A program made the position numbers and the translations under genes. A stretch of 63,235 bases of DNA, filler included, from Reticulomyxa filosa (taxonomy: Eukaryota > Protista > Foraminifera): the NCBI GenBank assembly GCA_000512085.1. It is 27 parts of 27 records of this genome, joined end to end, with 100 filler letters (N's around TTAATTAATTAA, not from the genome) between each part and the next. Parts side by side here need not be neighbours in the genome. Positions count along the whole stretch, not along the records: positions 5,027 to 8,637 come from ASPP01034389.1; 26 more parts are not named here. The stretch is one strand, 5' to 3'. This document shows positions 2 to 48,322 of this stretch, one piece after another. Within the stretch, counting starts at the first letter, position 1. Every line of letters starts with the position of its first letter. The notes under the pieces are model-generated. The model was not told where the DNA came from, made no database searches, and saw nothing but the letters and a program-made list of their open reading frames with translations.

Positions 2-541
2 TCAGAAGACAAAACAATAAAATTATGGGATGTAAATTCTGGAGATGAAATTAGACATCTTAGTGATCATTCAGGTGGTATAAACAGTGTACAGTTTTCT
101 CCAGATGGTCAAATGTTTGCATCATCATCTGATGATAAAACCATTGCTATATGGGATATACACTCAGGCAGAAAATTGAAAGAATTAAAAGGGCATTCCG
201 ATTCTGTAATGCGTGCAAAATTTTCTCCAGATGGTCAATTTATTGTATCTTGTTCTCGTGATAAAACAATTCGAATATGGGATGTAGAATCAGGAAAAGA
301 ATTAAAGAAATTAGAAGGACATTTAGATGTTGTGAATGATGTACAATATTTTTCAGATGGACAAACTATTGTATCTTGTTCAAAGGATAACACAATTCGA
401 TTGTGGAATGTGAAAGCAGGACAACAAATACAGCTATTGCGAGAACATACTTCTTATGTTACTAGTATAGATATTTCAGCAGATGATAATACAATTGTAT
501 CATGCTCTACTGATAAAAAAATAATTATATGGGGATGTTAA
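2..541 (+). CDS. WD40-repeat protein, 3' part (5' end truncated by the window)
   Basis: Frame is open from position 2 (SEDKTIKLWDVNSGDEIRHLSDHSGGINSVQFSPDGQMF...). Consecutive GH...FSPDG..IVSCS.DKTIRIWD repeats run to the stop at 541. Confidence 0.95.
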   Translation, partial: SEDKTIKLWDVNSGDEIRHLSDHSGGINSVQFSPDGQMFASSSDDKTIAIWDIHSGRKLKELKGHSDSVMRAKFSPDGQFIVSCSRDKTIRIWDVESGKELKKLEGHLDVVNDVQYFSDGQTIVSCSKDNTIRLWNVKAGQQIQLLREHTSYVTSIDISADDNTIVSCSTDKKIIIWGC

Positions 542-1094: not shown

Positions 1095-2700
1095 GCAAAG
1101 TACCTGGACAAAAATAGGTCATAGTATAAAAAGAAAAACATAAACATAATTACAATTCGTTCACAAAACACAAACAAACTAAAAATCTTCAATTAAATAA
1201 AACAATTTCAAATTTTCCTTCCAGTTGCAACAACGAACTTTGAAAGTTATTGACAACTTTGATTCTTGTCTCAGGTTCGATGTCTTGAATTGAAAATGCG
1301 GCAACAAACTCTTGATTGCTCGCCATGATTCTCGAATTTCTTGATAATGTGGATATTCAATCAGGAAATGCTCCACTGTTTCTTCTTCATCTACACACTA
1401 TTTACAATCTGGAGCATTTGATCTTTTAATCTTGTACAGGAAAGAATTTAATACTACATTACATGTAATGATTTAGCGTACAAATCTGCGCTCATGCACT
1501 TCCAATCGGCATAATACAATTTTCTCAAATGACTGCGCTTCAGTCAGGTTAACTAGATTTCATTCCATTATTCAGTGAAAAATGGATTCAGTCCATGGAA
1601 ATTCAGGAATGGAGTTGTTCGGTCTGGTCTTCTGAATAACTCAGGACTGATCGAATTCTGCTTGAAGTTTTTGCTATCTTTCATTTTCCTTTGATCCAAT
1701 AAATTTCAGGAACACCATTTTCTTCAAGTTGTTTCATTAATCTTTGACATTCTGCGATCGGAAAGTTGTAAGCTTTTGAATTGCATTTGTTGTGAATTTC
1801 ATTCACAGCAAATTTACAATTAGATAGAACTACAATTCGCTAGTCTTTGTGCTGTTTTTGCTTGCATTCCAATGCTTGTCGAATTGATTCAATCTCGCTT
1901 TCAATCATTGTGGTAATTTCTTTGATTGGAAATTTCAATTCGATCCATTATGATTGAAATAGATCTTGGATTACCAATCCTGGCTTGCAACTTCCTTCTG
2001 CAAATATAACGACTGTGTCGTTACCTAATGTGTTCAATATCTCTTGATGTTGGTCCTTTCCACCTTTCAAATGGAGACTTAATGTGAGGTAATCTTTCCA
2101 TTTGATTTAGTGGCTTATCGAAATGTTGATATTGATCTGGTTGCACCTTTGGTATTCCAATTTCAGCACAATGAATGTATGTCCTTGATAGTGTTGACAA
2201 TTCATGATTTTGTTTCCATAATAATAACCTTGGGGAATAACAATGAATCGATCATTTGTTGTCCACCATGCTTCAGCATTTGATTGTGAATACTGTCTAG
2301 TCCTTGTGCCTTGTGAGATGAAATGTATTTATATGCTTCAATAATTTCTTACTAGTGATATTCATTTAATGAAATTCATTTCACAGGATAATTTTCATTT
2401 TATCGTCTCTTTTCATTTTAATCACTGATGCAATCTCATCTTCCACTAAACCATTCGGAAGAAGTTGCAGAATATTATGAATTAGTTGAAGTAGTTTCCA
2501 AATGATTTTTATTCCAATCGTTTTCTTTCCAACACTCGCCGCACATTCTGTCCATTGTTCTAATGATTGTGGATCATTGGAATACCATTATGGCATTGCA
2601 TTTTGCCATTTTTGTAATACTTGATGAAACAATTCCCACGTATCACTACTGTGATTGCAGATGATTTGAATGGATGTAAAGTCCATCATAATATAGATGA
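1095..2700 (-). mobile_element. Degraded, internally deleted non-LTR retrotransposon (LINE with RNase H and C-terminal CCHC-like motif)
   Basis: Manual minus-strand translation gives an RT domain-0 motif KAQGLDSIHNQMLKHGG (~2270-2312) and RNase H motifs VVIFAEGSCKP, TTMIESEIESIRQALE and RIVVLSNCKFAVN (~1800-2020). It ends with LNSFLYKIKRSNAPDCK*CVDEEETVEHFLIEYPHY (~1345-1460). Many stops and frameshifts. Confidence 0.85.
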
Positions 2701-3594
2701 AAACAAAGAGTGATATTAATTGATGATCTTGCTAAAAAAAAATACTTGACTTAAAAAGTTGTTTTTTGAAGGGAATTTGAGTACCAGGCAGTTATTGGCT
2801 TCAATATTTATAGATATTTGAAGTTCATTTGAAAGAAAGTTTATTGTAGTTTGTGATTGAAGGAAAATTCTCAAAGAAATTTCCAGTTGGCAAATTTTTG
2901 CAGATTTATTGTAATCCAAGACAATAATTGGTCTTTACGCTGAGCAAAAAAATTTTTATTTTCCGGATTAGGAGACAAACACTTGCAAAAATTTGTCACG
3001 ATATCGTGGAACACTGGTATTTTGAAAATTTTTAAGAAATTTCGGGATTTCCAAGATGACAACAAATATGTCTGACTACAGCAAGTCTTTGGCAAGCAAT
3101 AAAGATGAACATCAAAAAGATTCGTCGTTGGCAACATTGCCGAATCCAAATGACACAATATCAATAAATCATCATTGGGACAATCAAAGTTAAATGCAAT
3201 GAATGATATTGACATGAACACAAATTCAAACAATGACAGACGTTATTCGTGGATTTATATGAAAAAAAAAGCAAAACGATTGAAATGAATCGGCAAGCAA
3301 AAAAATGAGACAACATTATGAACTAAATGTTGTACCAAAAAAAAAATTCATTTATATCGAGATAAACTTTTGAAAAAAAAGTTGTATTTTGAAGCAAAGA
3401 ACAACTAGATACTGCAACATCTAGCAGTATCTGAAAGAAGTTCGAAGTTAATCTTCGATTATTAACAACGATTTCGTCGTCAGCAAGATTGTGGCGAAAA
3501 CAGAAATAAAGACAAAGATACAAAGAAAATACTTTCAAACTACAAAAAAGAATTTTTTTTTTATCGTGATAAAAAATCTTTTTTACTAGTTGAA

Positions 3595-3694: not shown

Positions 3695-4926
3695 TACACA
3701 TGACTCCCGAACATCCGAATGACTATCTTTTAATCCATCAATCAAACATTGAAAAGCAATATTCAATTGTTTATCATTCCATTTATTTGAAAGTGTTACA
3801 AGTGAGTTTGCACATGACTTCTGAACACTCTTATTACTATCTTTTAATCCATTTGTCAAACATTTAAAAGTATCATCGAAATATTTTCCATTTAGATTCA
3901 CTGCAATTGCTTCAAGTAATTTTGCACATTCTCCACGCACATCTTCATCATCATTTTTATCAGTGAATATATCCATTGAAGAGTTAAAAATTTCATTCAA
4001 TTGTTGTTCATTACATTTATTTAAAATTTCTTCAATTAATTTAATGCACTTGATACGAATATTTTGATGTTTATTTTTATCATTTAACTTATCCATAAAA
4101 TAATTCAATGCAATGTTCATTTGTTTTTTATCCAATTTCTGTGCAATTTCATCAAGTAGATAAGCGTATTTATCAATATATATATTTCTCCTTTCACAAT
4201 CTAATTCACTAATTAAATAATTAAAAGCACGATCGAATTGTTTTCCAGACATTTTCACTATAATTGCCCCAAGTCCTTCTGTATAAAAATAATAATCATC
4301 TTCATTGAGCATGTCTTCTAAAGAATCGAAAGCATCATCCAATTGTTTTTTATTCCATTTCATTGAGAGTTTTCCAAGTAATTTTGCACGATTATATCTA
4401 TCTTCCTTTTTATAGGAAAATTGATTAATCAAACATTGAAAGACATTACCTAATTGCCCTTCTTTCAATTTCATTAGAAATTGAGTCGCATTATAATCAT
4501 AAAGATATGAAGGAAACCTACGAACGAAACATTGAAATGCTTTACCTAACTGTTTTTCTCCCAATTGTGATGAAATCGTTGCAAGTGCGTGTGCACATTC
4601 TTTACAAATTCTAGCTTTTCCACTCTCAAAGGCATTCATCAAACATTCAAACACTTTATTCAATTGTCTCTCATTCAATTTCAATGCTATTTTTACGATT
4701 GATTTTGCACATCTTTTATGAGTATATATATCTTTGTGAACAAGCCATCCATGAAAAATTCAAAAACATCATCCAATTGTTGTTCATTTATTTTCACTGA
4801 TATCACACAAAGTAATTCTGCACACGTTTCATTGTTTTCTTTAAAAACTTGTTTGTAACATTGGACAACAATATCTGAAGTTTCTGTTGAAATACACAAA
4901 TACTGTAATAATTTCAATCGATCTTT
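3695..4926 (-). CDS. HEAT-repeat protein fragment (PBS-lyase-like), paralogue of 45662-48322; one frameshift near 4740
   Basis: ORFs 4693-4917 and 3647-4684 join after a 1-nt shift and are collinear with the 896-aa ORF (LCISTETSD.VVQCYKQVF, CAHALATISSQLG, GLKDS...V..SC). Confidence 0.9.
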
Positions 4927-5026: not shown

Positions 5027-5660
5027 CGAATCAATTCATTTGGATTTTTACAAGGACAAGAACTAATGGATTCATCACAACCAACCAATTCAGTATATTT
5101 TCCTCATTTGATATTTCAAGAATGGCTTGCCGCTTATTATTTGGTGAATTGCTTGTATGAATCAAATGAAACAAAAGAACATGAACAAGTATGCTCCATT
5201 TTGGTCAATCAACAACTCACTCCAAAATATTCTGCAATGATACCATTTATGGCTGGAATATTATATGGTAATATTGAAAATAAAAAAGTCCATCATGATC
5301 AGGTTTATTATATTTTTGGAAATTGTTGCATTCATCGCCACTTCAAGCTGTTCCAATTCATCAAGTGATGTTGCACATGCATTGTTTGGATGCATACAAA
5401 GCGAACATAAACAGTTCATTTCTTCCACGTTCACTTCAAACGTGTCATACAGCGCTTATTGATTGGATCAAAGTTAATAAAGGTAAATGCGATATTTACG
5501 ATGTATTACTCAAACAGAACCTGAATAGACCATTGGATAACGTGATGAAATTGTATTTACCCAATTTTCAATATCTCTTCATCATTCTGATATTCATTTA
5601 TGTATCATCGATCAAATTAAGGTAATTCAAACACAATTGAATAAAATTGATAATAATCAT
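5027..5660 (+). pseudogene. NACHT/STAND C-terminal helical region (wHTH-HD2-like) running into the start of the HEAT-repeat family; frameshifted and truncated
   Basis: RINSFGFLQG...VYFPHLIFQEWLAAYYL resembles the F.HL(T/S)FQE(F/Y)xAAxYL motif of NACHT proteins. The 3' end (5611-5657) matches the first ~45 nt of contig 45662. Confidence 0.8.
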
Positions 5661-6914
5661 CCTTGTTCGCTAGGAACTGCGCAAACAGCTCATTACTTGC
5701 TGTGTCTGCTTCTTTTGTGTTGTTTGCAGTCACCAAGTCTGTAAGTGTCGATTTTTTACAAGCTTGATCCGTTGGATATATTAGCATTTATATTATAGAT
5801 TTTTTTTTAAAAAATCGAAATTACTGGCCACTTTTTCTGCTTTTCAAAGAAGTTACTAGTATTTTTTCTTCAATTTATTCTTTTTTTTTATATAGTTCAT
5901 TTTTTTTAGGTCATTTTAAAATGGTTAATAAATAACAACATGATTTGAATGTATTTGTGAACATTTCGAAACTTTTTAACAAACTGAATAAAATGTAATT
6001 TACTTTATCAAGATTATATAAATATTCAATTATGTTACATTGTGAAAAATATTAAAATATTATTTGTTTATTGGAAATAAAAAAATAAATAATATATTAA
6101 TGAAATGATATTATAATTATTTTAAGAATGTAAATTATATTTATAAGTAATGTTCAAATCACATTAATAATACTTTTTATAAAAAGTATTATTATTTTTT
6201 AAAAGATATCAACATTTGTAATTCATAAGATTTAAAATACACTTTTCAATTTTTAATTTGTGAAAAATTTATTTATATTTGTAAAGAGATTTTCTACGAA
6301 ATTAAACAACTTTCATTCTTAAAACTAAAATAATTATTATTTGTATTTTGTCTTAGTTAATGCCAAAAATATATTAAATAGCGCTTGATTTGCACTGTTC
6401 AACAAATCTTCTTTCAATCAGTATTGTGTCAATTGATATTTCAAACAGTTTTTTTTACATTCTTCATTGTTATTGCAAAAAAGCATATCGAAAATCCACT
6501 TTACAAAAATGTTTGTTTTTCAAAAATGTAGATGACAATTTTCCAATAAATAACAACTTCAATAAATGATTTCAAAAATAATTTTTTCAAAAAAAAAATT
6601 TAGATTTATGTAAAATCAAAATAGTATAAATATTCTATTATTTTCTGTATATTAACATTTATCAAATATATGGAAAAAAAAATAATTATATAAATGAAAT
6701 GCAATTTGACTCGGGCTACAATTGGATACACTTTTATGAAATAATTAATTCAGAAATATAATTATACAACTTGATCCAATCACACACATTAAATTTTTTA
6801 TATTTTTTTTAAATAATAAAATTTATCAATATTTGAATATATGCAGTTATTTGATAATGAAATTTATGTTATGAACAATTAATTTTTCAAATTGATAATT
6901 GAAAAAGAATGCAC

Positions 6915-8637: not shown

Positions 8638-10789
8638 NNNNNNNNNNNNNNNNNNNNNNNNNNNNNNNNNNNNNNNNNNNNTTAATTAATTAANNNNNNN
8701 NNNNNNNNNNNNNNNNNNNNNNNNNNNNNNNNNNNNNAAAAATGGAACCACGTTCTCCCTTTGTCAAATAAAAACTGGTTTATTTTTTGGAAACAGGTTC
8801 AAAAAAAATAAAAAATGACCCACAATTTTTAAAAAATAAACCCCAATCAAATCTGATTATTAAATATCTTGTTTGTCATTTTTTTTGCAACAAAATAGCT
8901 GATATATTTTATGATTGAATTTGATCATGTACATTATTAGAGATTTTTTTTTGCAATCTCAAACATTTCTACAGCCATTCAACCCTGTTCCTTTCATTTT
9001 TCTTTTTCAATGTTCATTGTGACACTTCGAACAATCTTGATCAGCTGCATTACATAAAGTTAAAAAAGTGATTATTAAAACACGTATATCATGATCAATG
9101 CGTTTCCAATAACAAGTTTGGAGTCTTTCCAAACTAACAATCCTAACCACGAACTTGTAGATAACCAAGTATCAAAGTATTAACAAAAAAAAGTTCGTTT
9201 TATCAACTGCTAACAATGTAACAATTAGTGATTTAATGATTATTATATCACTAATAATATAAATATTCAAATGTAACCACAATGATAATCGAAACTTTAT
9301 TTGTTTCTGAGCACATGTATTCGTTGGTAGATAAAATCAATTATTTTTATTGATATTGAAAACTTAACGCATAATTGGATCTGCATATTGAAAAACACGA
9401 GATATAAAAAGCAGTAATGCGAAACTTAGACCACAAATTATATTTTTTTCAATATAATTTCGACATAACCACGTTGGTGATGTCGAACTGAGAGTTCACA
9501 ATTGCATTGATGTGATTGGTCGTTGATGTGATGTGCAAATATTTGGAGATATTCTTACTGTGTAATTGAGTTTACAAGTACTGTCCATATCTTTTCAATA
9601 GTTCGCCAAACTACTTTACTTCTATGTAAATCTTCATCTTCCAAAAGTCTTCTAATTACACCATCTCTCCTTTGAGAGGTAAAACAGATATCTTGGTAAA
9701 TGGCACAATCGAGCATATTGTCGGATTTGTCCTTGAATTTCTCTATTTTTTTTGTTTATTTTTTTTTAAAAGATAAAAAAATTATATTTTTCGTTGAGAT
9801 AGAGAAACTACGAACGAATGATCAATTTTTTTTCTTTGCCGAAATTATCTTTGTTCAACAATATTGATTTACGATTTATTGAACAAACAAAACTAATAGA
9901 TTGCACACTTGTATAAAAATACGCTTGTTGAAATATGTGTGTTTATGTCATTTTCATACAGAATGAAGCCAGAAAATATCTTTTTCGGAATAGTCGAAGG
10001 GAAGGATTCAACTTTTTTTTTTAGAGTTAAATCAAAATGTAATGCTCAAAAATATTTTTTCTCAATGTTTTTTTGAAGATTGAAAAAAAAACTTTTACCA
10101 AGATGGAACCCTTNNNNNNNNNNNNNNNNNNNNNNNNNNNNNNNNNNNNNNNNNNNNTTAATTAATTAANNNNNNNNNNNNNNNNNNNNNNNNNNNNNNN
10201 NNNNNNNNNNNNNTTATAAGTTTTTTTCAATTTATGAACTCTAACCTTGAACATTTTGCAACATGCATAATACTGCGTTCACTTCTCACCATATCAACAG
10301 CTATTTACTTGTCAAATTGAGTGGCATACTTTACTGTTACACTAATTTAGTTTTTACAAGTTTATTGCTGATGTAAATTTGTTTTAGCAAAAAAGATTTT
10401 TGCTGGAATGAAACCAATAAATGTAAAAGCTTTGAAATTACGTAAGTTCAAAAATTGAACTTTTTTATTAATTACAAAAAATTTAATATTTTAATTATAT
10501 ATTCTAAACTAACAAAGATACAATTATCAAATTTTATGCAATCGAACAACAGTATAAGTCAACATATATGTAAAATTACATACTTATAACTTGAGTAGAT
10601 TCAGAAAAAAATAATAACTTTTTAAATAACACTATTTTTCATTGGTATTCACTTTTTTTTTGGACGCTGCTGTAAAATATAATAAAAACAAAACGAACGA
10701 GCGAATTTTTGAAAAAATGAGTTCTGATTTCTTTAAAAACAAAAGAATAACGGGGAGCATACTGCACCAAAGTGTTATCAAAAAATATC

Positions 10790-11225
10790 ATGCCTGGCAC
10801 ACGACATGCTAAGAATAATACTGCTTTGGGTTTTTTTACACGTGCAGAGCGTGAGAAATTGGACTGCTGGGGAGCAAAATCAGTGCGTCTAAGTAAAGAG
10901 TCAGTGAAGAAATATGACGCGTGTAGCATTTGTTTCAAAACATGTGAAATGCCGATGGTGTGTCCATATGGAGATTTGTTCTGCAAGCAATGTATCTACC
11001 AGTCACTATTACTCCAAAAGGAGAAAATAAAAGAGAGAGCAAAGATATTTGAAGAGCAGGAATTGAAGCTAAAGGTATGCATTGAAAACAACCACCAGAG
11101 AGACAGCCCATAAAAAAAAAAAAAAAAGACAAGACCCCCAAGACGAACCAAAAAAAAAAAAAAAAAAAAATGGATAAAACAAACAGACAGTGAAACAGCA
11201 AGAAACTCAGGAAAAATTAGTGAAA
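10790..11225 (+). CDS. NOSIP: Nitric oxide synthase-interacting protein homologue (RING/U-box-like), N-terminal part; intron 11075-11186
   Basis: MPGTRHAKNNTALGFFTRAER...RLSKESVKKYDACSIC...PMVCPYGDLFCKQCI matches the NOSIP N-terminal pattern. A phase-0 GT..AG intron resumes TVKQQETQEKLVK. Confidence 0.9.
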
Positions 11226-26468: not shown

Positions 26469-27402
26469 TTATTTTAATTTTGCCAAATCTTCCAATGTGA
26501 TGATTTGCACTCCTTGTTGTACGAGTTTTTCATTCATTTCTTTCTCCGAGTTCTGTTGCATATCACAAGTGTTATTTAAAAAAATGGACAAATGAAACAA
26601 ATAAAAATAAATAAAAACAAAACTGGAGCAACCGAAGCCGAGCAGTCTTTGATCACAAAGGCTTTGAAGCCCAAGTTGACCCCATCGATGGCAGTGAAAC
26701 CAACACAATAGTCATAGGCAAGTCCGACGCAGTAAATTTCATCAACACCTTCCTCTTTTAAAATATCCTCCAATGCGGTTTTGCTTTTCTTGTCATTGTC
26801 TAAAAACGCACTGTAGCTATCAACACCGGGGTCCATTCCTTTCAACACGATTTTATCCGTTTTTTGTATTATTAAGTCTTTATGTATTTTCGCACCATCG
26901 CTGCCTTGAACGCAATGGTTTGGCCACATTATCTTTTTTTTTTTTGTTGTTGTTAAAAAAAAAGGGGACAAACAATTTCAAATAAAAAAAAAATTCATAA
27001 AATAAAATTTTTTTTTTTGAAATTAAACTTGGGCTTCCCCGTTTTCGAGTTTGCATGGGTGATATAATTTGGCTGTGGCGTCCCTTTTGATGTTATTGGA
27101 TAGAAAACTACTATGGCTTGGGGGGTGCCAGTCCATGCTACAACATACCACGTCAAATTTCTTCCCATATTTGGTTCGTAACTCATTGATCTGACTGACA
27201 ACTTTATCCCCTCCGTTCACTGCTAACGACCCTTTTGGGGGAATAAAGTCGTTCTGGACGTCTACTATCAATAATGCACGTTTTCTATATTAACCAGTTT
27301 TGAAAGTAAACCAAACACTAACAAAGTATACTTTTTTGTTTATTTCAATGACACAAAATTTTTTAACTTTTTTTTTGTTTTTTCGGCAGGTGCTTGAGTC
27401 AT
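26469..27402 (-). CDS. PNC1: Nicotinamidase/pyrazinamidase (isochorismatase family), 4 exons
   Basis: ALLIVDVQNDF..GSLAV..G, DWHP..H.SF, WPNHCVQGSDGA, KG....DSYSAF, VGLAYDYCV. Introns at ~27285-27368, 26933-27028 and 26553-26623; the latter two join in frame. Confidence 0.96.
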
Positions 27403-31855: not shown

Positions 31856-32855
31856 TTCCCTGCAGATCGACTCACAACAATAACCAACTATAATCACCTA
31901 AACAAAATTATCAGCTGCATGGAAGGTGGCAAAACAGCGGTGATGTATAATCTCGAAAACATACATGAAAGTTTGTATGACATGTTAAATCAAAGGTATC
32001 AAAAGAGACCCTCTGGTCAACCCTATTGTCGAGTGGCTTTGGGCAGCGAAAGCAGAGATTGCTATGTCAGTGAAAATTTTAAATTGGTTGTTATTGTTAT
32101 GAAGTCCGTCGCCTACTCTCCGGAAATGCCCATTGCGTTTTTAAACCGCTTTGAAAAGCAGCTTATTTCGTACGAAAGTTCATTGCAGCCAAAAGTTCGA
32201 GCGCACATACAAGAAATGCGAGACAAACTTAGTCAAGCGTTTGGGATGAGAGGAGGCCAATTGAGTGATCTGTTTCCTGGATTTTGTGATGATACCATTC
32301 CCTCGGCACTTTGCATATTGGCGGAGGAACAGCACGACGAGAAATATGATGAACAAAAAGTAGGGAAAAATGAAGAGACACTTAACCTCACAGACATAGA
32401 ATTGAAGATGTTAGAACTGTTTCGACCAATGTGTCGACCGGAAAAACTCATCGAATTGGCAATTCAAAAAAAATATCGTCCCAACGATGATCCAACACAA
32501 CCAGAGCATTTTCCCACTCTTGTATTATTTAAAAAAAAATAATATCTTTATATGATCTATACATATCACAAATACTTTGTATGTAACAGAAAATGACCGC
32601 TGACGGACATCACGACAAATTTGCTAAGCAAATGCTGATGGTGCTGACACTGGACTTTGAATGTAATCTTGGCAAAGAATGGCATGCAGATTTGTTAAAA
32701 GTTGAGGACTATAATAAGGCAAGCGACTTTGAGAAAGCCGTGGAAAGTTTCTTCAATCCTAAATCAAATAAAAATCGATTACTGTTGCAATATCGCTATG
32801 AACCGCAAAACCAGACACAGTTTATCCAAATCAAGCATATACTCCAAAAAGCTCA
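31856..32855 (+). CDS. RNF213/mysterin-like giant AAA+ ATPase, internal AAA-core fragment (probable intron ~32522-32590)
   Basis: FPAD....NHLNKIISCMEGGKTAVMYNLENIHESLYDMLNQRY...YCRVALGSESRDCYVSENFKLVVI...MPIAFLNRFEKQ. This parallels the RNF213 segment as I recall it (FPKD...RVKICMETG..VLLLNLQNLYESLYDALNQYY...VDLGLG...CRVHPNFRLIVI...FPIPLINRLEKH). Confidence 0.88.
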
Positions 32856-38312: not shown

Positions 38313-38533
38313 NNNNNNNNNNNNNNNNNNNNNNNNNNNNNNNNNNNNNNNNNNNNTTAATTAATTAANNNNNNNNNNNNNNNNNNNNNNNNNNNNNNNN
38401 NNNNNNNNNNNNTGGAAGGAATTGTTGATTGATTATCAGCAAATAAAAATTCTTGATGATTTGTGGAAGTTTATTCAAAAACTTTGAAAGTATTAAATGG
38501 TGTTTAATTTAAATACATTTCAATTTATTAAAC

Positions 38534-38905
38534 ATGGTAATAAACGGACATGGAGATGAAGATGATATATTGGTAACGAGTGAGGGATATTCCATTCCGA
38601 TTAATGAAATTCGGTCATTTTTTGATTGCAATCGAATAAATTCTTTGAAAGGCTGCCCTAAAGTATTCATTATTGATGTCTACCGTGGTAATATTGTTCC
38701 TCAAAATACAGAAAACATTCCAATAAAAAGGAAAAATAATACAGAACAAAACAACATGCATAATGACAATGTCTTTTTAATGATATGGTCAACAACAAAA
38801 GGGTATCAAGTGCTGATTTGTCATTACTCTGCAAGCATGAAAAATATAATTATTTCCAAATACAAAATTGGCTATCCTTTAAGTCATATGCTAAGAGAAA
38901 TTTGA
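38534..38905 (+). pseudogene. Caspase-like (peptidase C14) p20/p10 fragment with the catalytic Cys replaced by Tyr
   Basis: VINGHG (catalytic His), F.....SLKGCPKVFIIDVYRG (expected IxACRG; TAC at 38681), then DNVFLMIWSTTKGY matching p10 D.L..(Y/W)ST..GY. Stop at 38905, apparently premature. Confidence 0.85.
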
Positions 38906-45661: not shown

Positions 45662-48322
45662 ATCAAATTAAGATAATTCAAACACAATTGAATACACTTG
45701 ATAATCGGAAATTAATAAAAGATCGATTGCATTTATTAGAGTATTTGTGTATTTCAACAGAAACTTCAGATGTTGTTGTCCAATGTTACAAACAAGTTTT
45801 TAAGAGATACGATTGGATGTCCGCAAACTTACTTGGTGAGATATCAGTGAAATTGAATGAACAACAATTGGATAATGTTATTGAATTTTTCATGGATGGA
45901 CTTGTTGACAAAGATCAAGATATTCATGAAAGATGTGCATTATTAATTGCAAAAATAGTATTGAACTTGAATGAGAGACAATTGAATAAAGTGTTTGAAT
46001 TTTTGATGAATGCCTTTGAGAGTGAAAAAATTACAATTTGTGATAAATGTGCACACGCACTTGCGACGATTTCATCACAATTGGGAGGAAAGCAGTTGGA
46101 TAATGCATTCCAATATATCATTCATAAGCTTCCTTCGAATTTTTATTCTTATAATAGGCCTCGATTTATAATGAAATTGAAAGAAAAACAATTAGATGAT
46201 GTTTTTCAAATTTTGATTAATCGATTATCTGATGAAAAGGAAAATGAATATTATCGTAACAAATGTGCAAAATTACTTGCAAAACTCTCAATAAAATGGA
46301 ATAGAACACAATTGAATGATGCTTTCAATTCTTTAAAAGACATGTTCAATAAAAATTATTATTGGAGGTATGAAGCACTTGAGATAATTACAGTGAAACT
46401 GTCTGGGAGACAATTCGATAATGCTTTTAATTATTTCATATTAAATTGTAAAGAGGATTATAAATATTATCTACTTGATGGAATTGTACAGAGATTGGAT
46501 GAAACACAAATGAATATTGCATTGAATTATTTTATGGATAAAGTAAATGATAAAAATGAACATCTAGATATTCGTTTCGAATACATTCAATTATTTAAAA
46601 AAATTTCAAACAAATGTGATGAACAACAATTGAATAAAATTTTTAACTGTTCAATGCATATATTCACTGATAAAAGTGATGATATAATTGTGCGTGTGGG
46701 ATGTATAAAATTACTTGAGATAATTGCAGTTGATCTAAATGAAAAATATTTCGGTGATACTTTTAAATGTTTGAAAAATGGATTAAAAGATAGTGATTAT
46801 TTTGTTCGATGCTCATGTGTAGAATCACTTGTAAAAATTTCAAAGAAATGGAATGATAAACAATTGGATATTACTTTTCAATGTTTGATTGATGGATTTC
46901 AAAATATAAATGGATATTATTGTGATACATCCAGAGATTTACTTAAAAAAATTGCAATAAAATTGAATGAAATACAAATCGATTCTATTTTCACACGTTT
47001 GGTCAATGGGCTCAAAGGTAACAATGAAAAGAATCGAAAATTGTATGTAGAATCTATTGGATTTCTTTTAATGAAATTAGATAAAAAACAATTGGATGAT
47101 GTTTTCGAATGTTTGAATGGATTAAAATATGAAAATGGGTGTATTCGTGAATTATGTAGAAATTCACTTGAAACAATTTCAACAAAATTGGATGATAGAC
47201 AATTGGATAGAGTTGTCAGTGCTTTCATTCATGGGTTAAAAGATAAAAATAAACATGTTCGTGGATCATGTGCAAAACCACTTGGTATAATTGCAATAAA
47301 AGCGAGTGAGAAACAACTGGAAAAAGTCGTTAACGTTTTGATGAGCGGATTAAAAGGGAAAGATAAATATGTTTGTCAATCATGTGCAGAATCACTTGGA
47401 GTAATTTCAGAGAAATTGGATGAGAAACAGCTAGAAGATGCAATTAATACTTTGATCGATGGATTGAACGCTAGCAATGAATGTATTCGTAAATCATGTG
47501 CAAAATCGCTTGGAGTAATTTCAACAAATTTGACCGATAAACAACTGGAAGATGCAATTAATACTTTGATCGCTGGATTGAGCGATAGCAATGAATATGT
47601 TCGTGAATCATGTGCAAAATCACTTGGAGTAATTTCAACGAATTTGATTGGTAAACAACTGGAAGGAGTGTTCAATGCTTTGCCAAATGAGCAGAAATTT
47701 AACCACTTTAATTCATATAAAAAAACGCTTAAAGAAATTTCAACGAAATGGAATGAAAAACAATCGGAGAGGATTTTCAACGCTTTGATATTTGTTTCCA
47801 AACATTCTTTCAATAAAAGCAACGACAAATTTGAAGATAGATTATTGGTGGAATTACTTGAATTAATATCAACGAAATTGAATGACAAACAATTGTATTT
47901 ATTGGTGATACATTTGTTGAAAAGAGCAAAAAAGAGATATATATATTATCTAAATGCATTGTCAAAAATTTCCGAAGATATGTGGAAACGTGCAACAATT
48001 GGTGGATTGAAAGAACATATGCAGATGATCAAAAAACAAAATATGCGGCAAAGATTGTTGAGTAATGTGAATAAAACAATAGAATTGTTGGCCTTCAGTT
48101 TGATGATATTCAATCCTCGCATTCAATTGAACTGCAATGATGATAATATAACTTTGGATGATTTGAACGAATTAATCAAGTATTGTGATAAACAAGCTAT
48201 TGAATGGAAATTTCCAACTCATCAATTAAAATGGAATAATAACAATAATGATAGAGATATTCCATATCCTTGTTTAAATGATGAAATTGAACAAGTTTCT
48301 AATGATGAGAATGCATACAAAG
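45662..48322 (+). CDS. HEAT-repeat solenoid (~38-aa units) of the NACHT-HEAT family; internal fragment
   Basis: Uninterrupted frame of ~880 codons with repeats xQLxxxFxxLxxGLKDxxxxVRxSCAxxLxxI. Paralogous to 3695-4926 and contiguous in sequence with 5027-5660. Confidence 0.93.
47422..47649 (+). repeat. Two near-identical 114-bp tandem HEAT units
   Basis: EKQLEDAINTLIDGLNASNECIRKSCAKSLGVISTNLT / DKQLEDAINTLIAGLSDSNEYVRESCAKSLGVISTNLI. Confidence 0.95.

Follow-up and report, generated by a model that had tools for sequence, protein, structure and literature searches.

This locus raises the question of what kind of gene the NACHT-like fragment at the start of contig 5027 belongs to, and how the HEAT-repeat contigs in the same window relate to it. 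The window, i.e. the whole stretch of Reticulomyxa filosa DNA that was analysed (63,235 nucleotides), consists of 27 small contigs with N spacers between them. In the original prediction, an NLR-like receptor family was reconstructed from contigs 5027, 3695 and 45662. Compared as sequences, these contigs are three different paralogues. The layout of their family is a NAIP-like NACHT, HEAT repeats, ankyrins and a predicted cysteine enzyme; we consider it somewhat probable that intact members are single-chain sensor-effectors of NLR type (sensor-protease), the 5027 copy being a truncated pseudogene.

The NACHT fragment of contig 5027

The predicted NACHT C-terminal signature was present (YFPHLIFQEWLAAYYL at ~5096-5143, frame 1 of contig 5027). 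The 5' edge of the contig falls inside the gene, and the copy begins downstream of the Walker A/Walker B/sensor-1 region. The end of NACHT HD1, the winged-helix region (HETHS) with the motif FPHLIFQEW and the start of HD2 lie at 5027..5287 (+), where the first 87 codons are identical to residues 442-528 of the NACHT protein P0019 (PF05729, E 2.5e-19) at 85 of 87 positions. HD2 continues in another frame at 5284..5577 (+; tblastn with P0019, 89/106 identical) and ends at 5565..5654 (+), where the family homology stops. Relative to P0019, the copy is frameshifted twice, near 5287 and near 5570, contains an in-frame stop at 5296-5298 and lacks 8 codons. Scanned alone against Pfam, the fragment gave NLRC4_HD2 only, below the cut-off (E 0.023). 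One DNA sequencing run compared with contig 5027 returned short pieces only.

The rest of the contig (5655..8637, no strand assigned) is AT-rich (contig GC 0.24) and lacks the HEAT part. P0019 matches the contig as far as ~5657-5757; past 5800, the window's own gene model P0018 was the sole match among 128 proteins, and ~3 kb after the fragment are without family match, P0018 aside. No C-terminal repeats follow NACHT in the 5027 copy itself. This copy is a truncated, HEAT-less pseudogene with two frameshifts and a stop. P0019 is its 98% sister; it retains Walker A and Walker B, carries His at the position of the sensor-1 Arg and is truncated at the same point, so that loss of the HEAT part probably preceded the 5027/P0019 duplication.

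The last ~45 nt of the fragment had been predicted to match the start of contig 45662. The match is real: 5611-5654, within the end of HD2, is identical at 41 of 44 positions to 45662-45705 (the opening 44 nt of contig 45662), against 24-28 of 44 for the best matches obtained when contig 5027 was shuffled 30 times. Identity falls to 13, 9, 7 and 10 of 30 in the successive blocks that follow, and 3 kb of unrelated sequence comes after; the stretch is therefore taken as paralogy at the HD2/HEAT junction and not as an assembly overlap. A single misassembled gene divided among the three contigs was ruled out, since the match is only 93%, other sequence follows it for 3 kb, and contigs 3695 and 45662 encode one and the same stretch of the protein.

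The HEAT contigs

Family matches were found in exactly 3 of the 27 window contigs, the number given in the original prediction. Contigs 3695 and 45662 are paralogous as proposed (82.6% identity across 1216 nt), and both contain HEAT and HEAT_2 above the Pfam cut-off. Contig 45662 holds an 886-codon frame (45664..48321, +), uninterrupted at 29% GC and ended by the contig edges, with ~20 HEAT-repeat lengths and a linker (HEAT E 6.5e-22); it is 66% identical to P0001 over 99%. The contig cuts fall after HD2 and just before the ankyrins. Within this frame, 4.7 tandem copies of a 114-bp (38-aa) HEAT unit, 75% alike, were found at 47144..47682 (+) and represent an internal repeat duplication. The second paralogue (3695..4926, -) covers the first ~9 HEAT repeats and has a 1-base frameshift near 4745.

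Family size and layout

Three length-bounded protein searches, covering proteins up to 2000 aa, were performed with the HEAT frame (17 matches of 7993 candidates), the winged-helix piece (27 of 33) and the tail domain (90 of 1900). Every match was from R. filosa, and some members are already named NACHT NTPase or HEAT-repeat protein in public annotations. The tail-domain profile matches 101 of 128 proteins, with a median column depth of 53 and a maximum of 65. Copy number was counted from database proteins and not from DNA; the resulting ~50 or more divergent copies are a floor, because the database entries are clustered at 90% identity. The predicted large expansion with pseudogenised copies is thus borne out, two of the three window copies being frameshifted.

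The family order is a short N-terminus, NACHT, HD1/WHD/HD2, 13-25 HEAT-repeat lengths, a linker, ankyrins and a ~350-aa domain. NACHT and HEAT were both above cut-off in at least 6 of 31 scanned gene models (Pfam, five families among the matches listed). The proposed order of NACHT followed by HEAT is therefore seen within single gene models (6/31), with superstructure-forming repeats C-terminal to NACHT as in NLRs; it does not apply to the 5027 copy, which has no HEAT solenoid. Some copies have one more domain beyond the tail domain, of alpha/beta type and ~110 aa long (P0033 ~1860-1970; P0042 ~495-606; also P0046, P0047, P0050 and P0054), with pLDDT about 66-91.

Walker motifs had been expected in the longer members. 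Among the 17 models of at least 1000 aa, P0009, P0022, P0023, P0030 and P0034 each combine Walker A and Walker B with the sensor-1 and WHD motifs; with PF05729 above cut-off, these five have the features of a NAIP-like N-NACHT. The HETHS motif FPHL[TI]FQEW[LF][AS]A was found in 21 of 128 proteins and in the window; it agrees with the published consensus FhHxxhQE[YF]hxA, with Trp where the consensus has Tyr/Phe. None of the 17 models carries all motifs from Walker A through Cys: P0033 is without Walker A, P0026 is without sensor 1 and P0034 ends before the Cys. As contig ends truncate some models and others seem to have been predicted around frameshifts, the intact gene is a putative one, put together from overlapping members.

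The N-terminal effector expected in the original prediction is absent from the gene models, and the candidate effector is C-terminal instead. In nine of ten models, the stretch ahead of the NACHT-leading helix is 10-90 residues long (10-40 in seven); the tenth, P0009, was missed by the helix pattern and has Walker A at residue 122. No Pfam effector family was among the matches listed for the N-terminus, where upstream exons may have escaped gene prediction. The gene models thus differ from the canonical tripartite NLR layout, which has an N-terminal effector. A PADLOC scan gave no meaningful match, and no PADLOC model fits the long members.

The tail domain

In P0033 numbering, the candidate catalytic residues of the tail domain are His1667, Asp1685/Asn1686, Gln1785 and Cys1791. 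Among covering sequences they are conserved in 54/58 (His), 49/51 (Asp), 49/52 (Asn), 45/47 (Gln) and 45/50 (Cys), and His-Asn-Cys is kept in 25 of 31 spanning copies; 16-30% of tail-domain columns equal these candidates in conservation. In sequence and model, His, Asp/Asn, Gln and Cys follow the CE-clan order on the expected secondary-structure elements. The Gln-x5-Cys spacing is what we take to be the oxyanion-hole pattern of CE-clan proteases.

The tail alignment had no match among Pfam and PDB sequences. A tail model was built from 9 sequences (pLDDT 57). In a wide fold search it matched AnkH at rank 7 of 48,161 (Z 5.1, rmsd 4.8, 209 aligned), and in a second fold alignment with 992 chains the top 6 were AnkH (Z 5.1), LegA15/AnkD (4.6, 4.4, 4.3) and MCF (4.4, 4.3); Z 5.1 is inside the background range stated by the fold tool. 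Foldseek with the tail-domain model gave no E below 0.001. An ankyrin plus tail model was then built from 77 sequences (pLDDT 78). In it, His306 is just ahead of a strand, the following strand ends with Asp324/Asn325, and a helix that comes after a long loop contains Cys425, an arrangement that agrees with the AnkH description in the accessible part of PMC6712400. The Cys region has pLDDT <50 in both tail models, so that the geometry of the triad is unsupported by them. When the ankyrin-containing model was used for fold searches, all of the matches listed were ankyrin or designed-repeat proteins.

Profile comparison (hhalign) with 5 AnkH homologues gave a score of 18.4, which is not significant (40 block shuffles, 10.5-22.8; reversed, 21.7). 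P0052 and P0049 had no match to the AnkH equivalog NF043023 at E <=1, three bacterial homologues scoring 570-802 bits. The top entry from the viral fold library, a giant-virus protein with the name ubiquitinyl hydrolase, did not reach significance (E 0.053). The Atlas gave leads only: a YopJ cluster (0.78), a ShET2/Toxin_15 cluster (0.79), two clusters without a name, of which one (0.87) is mostly eukaryotic and the other (0.94; 239 aa) is 54% bacterial, and a cluster of 149 aa, again mostly eukaryotic (TM 0.51). Tail-domain pattern scans of genomes, metagenomes, viral contigs and plasmids, sensitive to close relatives only, found nothing, and a low-sensitivity search of 5 related bacterial genomes did not find the domain.

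With weak Z matches and a profile score within the shuffled range, a CE-clan-like fold of the modelled tail is likely, not established. Its predicted cysteine-enzyme chemistry is less certain than the fold. According to the accessible parts of two reports, AnkH had no protease activity in vitro (PMC6712400) and LegA15 turned out to be a GTPase (PMC9757750).

Divergence across the domains

Mean identity to P0033 was 0.60-0.64 for the NACHT module (9 and 17 sequences), 0.32 for HEAT (28 sequences; repeat-register differences contribute to this low value), 0.54 for the ankyrins (28 sequences) and 0.66-0.67 for the tail domain (49 and 43 sequences). HEAT regions are thus far more divergent than NACHT or the tail domain. 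Between the window HEAT copies 3695 and 45662, dN/dS was 1.73 by counting (336 codons) and 1.64-2.57 in four likelihood models (331 codons); tested against 1, these gave p 0.073, 0.053, 0.0008 and 0.0001, i.e. a significant excess in two of four. Internal HEAT repeat units gave 0.60-0.94. As dN/dS above 1 comes from a single pair, one member of which is frameshifted, it is suggestive only. These values are suggestive of a variable sensor in the HEAT region.

Bacterial relatives

Scanning bacterial genomes with a pattern yielded 43 loci; those that matched best come from Legionella, Legionellales and other Gammaproteobacteria and are 22-25% identical. Matching metagenome loci number at least those listed. 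Most of the scanned bacterial loci are NACHT-HEAT proteins, some with kinase, ankyrin or OTU domains farther on. A quick tree was made with 74 NACHT regions and a careful tree with 41 of these, chosen by hand. Loci that failed the motif filter, e.g. L014, were excluded, and the rows comprised no fungal, rickettsial or other protist N-NACHT. Both trees join the 10 R. filosa rows with Gammaproteobacteria. In the careful tree, R. filosa and 9 Legionella/Gammaproteobacteria NACHTs form one branch with 99/98 support; the tree is unrooted and composition differs among rows. The single animal-type NACHT-LRR included (L044:1696-4404, a single frame on a metagenome contig) falls just outside this branch.

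Kinship of the R. filosa NACHT with Gammaproteobacteria NACHT-HEAT proteins is thus supported by an unrooted tree, and the suggested link to bacterial NACHT-HEAT proteins is supported to that extent. Horizontal exchange of the NACHT-HEAT core with protist-infecting Gammaproteobacteria, in either direction, is likely on these sequences.

The nearest NACHTs found (bacterial NACHT-HEAT loci L001-L006, L008, L009, L011 and L014) mostly have a short N-terminus, as in R. filosa, and they share the habit of C-terminal additions: HEAT, kinase, ankyrin and OTU protease for L005, and HEAT, kinase and ankyrin in the next ORF for L006. Their tails, which are kinase or OTU domains or lack annotation, in no case match the tail domain of R. 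filosa, and identity is 22-25%. The tandem NACHT-HEAT genes L005:1-5562 and L006:5434-12689, which carry kinase, ankyrin and OTU protease domains at the C-terminal end, are a bacterial counterpart of the tail-effector layout. OTU, pentapeptide repeats and NACHT occur in L003:2230-9540. AnkH homologues (L077, L079, L083, L085 and L096) were found in five uncultured Legionella/Legionellales/Gammaproteobacteria genomes, the same ones that carry NACHT-HEAT relatives.

Comparison with known systems

HEAT in the place of LRR, WD40 or TPR, the layout given in the original prediction, is not new: in the accessible part of PMC12258605, N-NACHT/HEAT is the usual N-NACHT layout of Sordariales fungi, occurs in Rickettsiales and has a patchy distribution that is under debate. 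As described there, the fungal and Rickettsiales proteins have, like those of R. filosa, a NAIP-like NACHT, an F-h-H-x-x-h-Q-E motif and then HEAT, and the fungal ones (Sordariales, Entomortierella) show a similar lineage-specific expansion, with up to 26 in E. parvispora. Their sole canonical N-terminal domain is sesB-like in that account, whereas R. filosa has no N-terminal effector. Unlike them, R. filosa has C-terminal ankyrins, a predicted Cys enzyme and ~50 or more copies, and its motif is QEW instead of QE[YF]. Already known, then, is the NAIP-like NACHT with HEAT; new, as read from the gene models, are the C-terminal ankyrins and the predicted cysteine-enzyme domain, without an N-terminal effector. 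According to the accessible part of bioRxiv 10.1101/2022.07.19.500537, C-terminal effectors are infrequent among bacterial NACHT proteins, whereas this is the common layout in R. filosa, a eukaryote.

Legionella AnkH/LegA3 and LegA15/AnkD resemble the R. filosa proteins in having ankyrins, a helical part and a His-Asp/Asn-Cys domain (accessible parts of PMC6712400 and PMC9757750). The motifs look alike (GHa, D/NRg and GNC in AnkH; GHxxHC, DNRW and QxxxxNC in R. filosa), and AnkH/LegA15 are the best fold matches, yet they have no significant sequence or profile match to the R. filosa tail. They also differ in lacking NACHT and HEAT and in their Asp/Asn-to-Cys spacing (66-71, against ~105 in R. 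filosa). In the same sources, the activity of AnkH is unproven and LegA15 is a GTPase. Among solved structures, NLRP3 was the top sequence match (E 2e-11), and HD2 is also similar to animal NLRs; these (NLRP3, NLRC4/NAIP) have an LRR sensor and an N-terminal death-fold effector, unlike R. filosa.

No description of the R. filosa NACHT family was found in literature searches whose scope lay mainly outside subscription journals; the species genome paper may mention it. In the accessible NLR literature, Reticulomyxa appears only as a caspase outgroup, and Reticulomyxa with NB-ARC gave only apoptosis papers at listing level. No literature was found for foraminifera, innate immunity and NACHT together. 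The accessible parts of 10.64898/2026.04.11.717937 and PMC13581612 have no bearing on the family.

Proposed mechanism and alternative explanations

In STAND proteins, a repeat solenoid keeps NACHT ADP-bound as long as no ligand is present; once a ligand is bound, nucleotide exchange drives oligomerisation. In an intact R. filosa member, the variable HEAT solenoid would bind a non-self or altered-self ligand, by which the ADP-bound NACHT would be freed. Nucleotide exchange and oligomerisation would then render the C-terminal domain active, and this domain would cleave or de-conjugate a target via His1667, Asp1685/Asn1686, Gln1785 and Cys1791 (P0033). The C-terminal Cys domain is proposed as the output because the models have no N-terminal effector. 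That a solenoid can return a C-terminal effector to the usual position has been argued for bacterial NACHT proteins (accessible part of bioRxiv 10.1101/2022.07.19.500537). The family may have an immune or allorecognition role, as suggested in the original prediction. It is a real but minor possibility that a foraminiferan fused a NACHT-HEAT receptor and an AnkH-like ankyrin-protease, both acquired from Legionellales that infect amoebae, into an inverted NLR whose enzyme is at the tail, now present in 50 or more copies with diversifying HEAT sensors.

The same NLR-like receptor might bear a tail that shares the protease fold without being a protease; it could hydrolyse GTP like LegA15, transfer acyl groups like YopJ, act as a deamidase or only bind partners. 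This is unlikely, given that conservation is 90-96% for each of His, Asp, Asn, Gln and Cys and that the Gln-x5-Cys spacing presumably fits the CE-clan pattern. What speaks for it is the 6 of 31 spanning copies without the full His-Asn-Cys set, the YopJ and ShET2/Toxin_15 leads of the Atlas, and the place of LegA15/AnkD among the nearest folds, LegA15 being a GTPase that needs its Cys and hardly its His (accessible part of PMC9757750). The frameshifts in two of the three window copies, the duplication of the truncated form itself (P0019) and the lack of a complete intact model among the 17 long ones could also mean that the family is mostly dead, i.e. a horizontally acquired gene that was amplified in a repeat-rich genome and is decaying, with HEAT divergence due to drift and repeat slippage. 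We find this improbable: drift alone would not hold NACHT and tail at 60-67% with HEAT at 32% (repeat misregistration widens this gap), the 886-codon frame is uninterrupted at 29% GC, and birth-and-death with many pseudogenes is the usual pattern of NLR families.

A non-immune regulator, such as a nucleotide-gated scaffold for fusion, trafficking or development of the multinucleate network, would suit the HEAT and ankyrin repeats, which are generic scaffolds, and the lack of a PADLOC model for the long members. It is nevertheless very improbable, as a conflict system would better account for the many copies, the varying number of repeats, the hypervariable sensor region and the pseudogenes. 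Least probable of all is that the genes come from a co-assembled bacterial endosymbiont or contaminant and encode Legionellales-type effectors. The nearest NACHTs are indeed from Legionella and other Gammaproteobacteria, the 886-codon frame is intronless and the window contains a bacterial-looking contig of 65% GC. Against such an origin, identity to the bacterial relatives is only 22-25% with ~50 or more divergent copies, and the 5027 copy is flanked by 3 kb of 24% GC without a long ORF. GC3 (0.19-0.23) is near that of a host WD40 gene (0.14), though other host ORFs have 0.32-0.61, and low-sensitivity searches did not find the tail domain in genomes, metagenomes, viral contigs or 5 related bacterial genomes.

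The sensing of intracellular bacteria or non-self cytoplasm by protists is a largely open field. If the sensor-protease reading is true, Rhizaria would have a large set of NLR-like proteins in which variable sensors are combined with a candidate enzyme in the same chain, a directly testable case beyond animals, plants and fungi. The N-NACHT/HEAT layout is extended to another eukaryotic supergroup and tied to Legionellales-type bacteria, and a ~350-aa domain without a Pfam family is defined. Should the fusion into an inverted NLR also be true, Rhizaria would have made an innate-immune or self/non-self system from parts of their own pathogens.

Other features of the window

A caspase-domain fragment was found at 38513-38902 (+; PF00656, E 9e-10); by eye, its usual catalytic Cys motif appears to be replaced. 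At 31856-32539 (+) there is an AAA fragment with a weak AAA_9 match below cut-off, which we presume to resemble RNF213-type proteins. The contig at 13709-15165 has 65% GC among contigs of mostly 24-45% GC; by eye it carries a PAS-like bacterial sensor fragment, and it is probably a contaminant. C-terminal WD40 repeats at 2-538 (+) are followed by a decayed element at ~1200-2900 (-), which has DNA in common with contig 32956 and resembles a non-LTR reverse transcriptase/RNase H. Ordinary host genes are represented by an isochorismatase-family fragment (26579-26977, -) and a NOSIP zinc finger (10751-11110, +).
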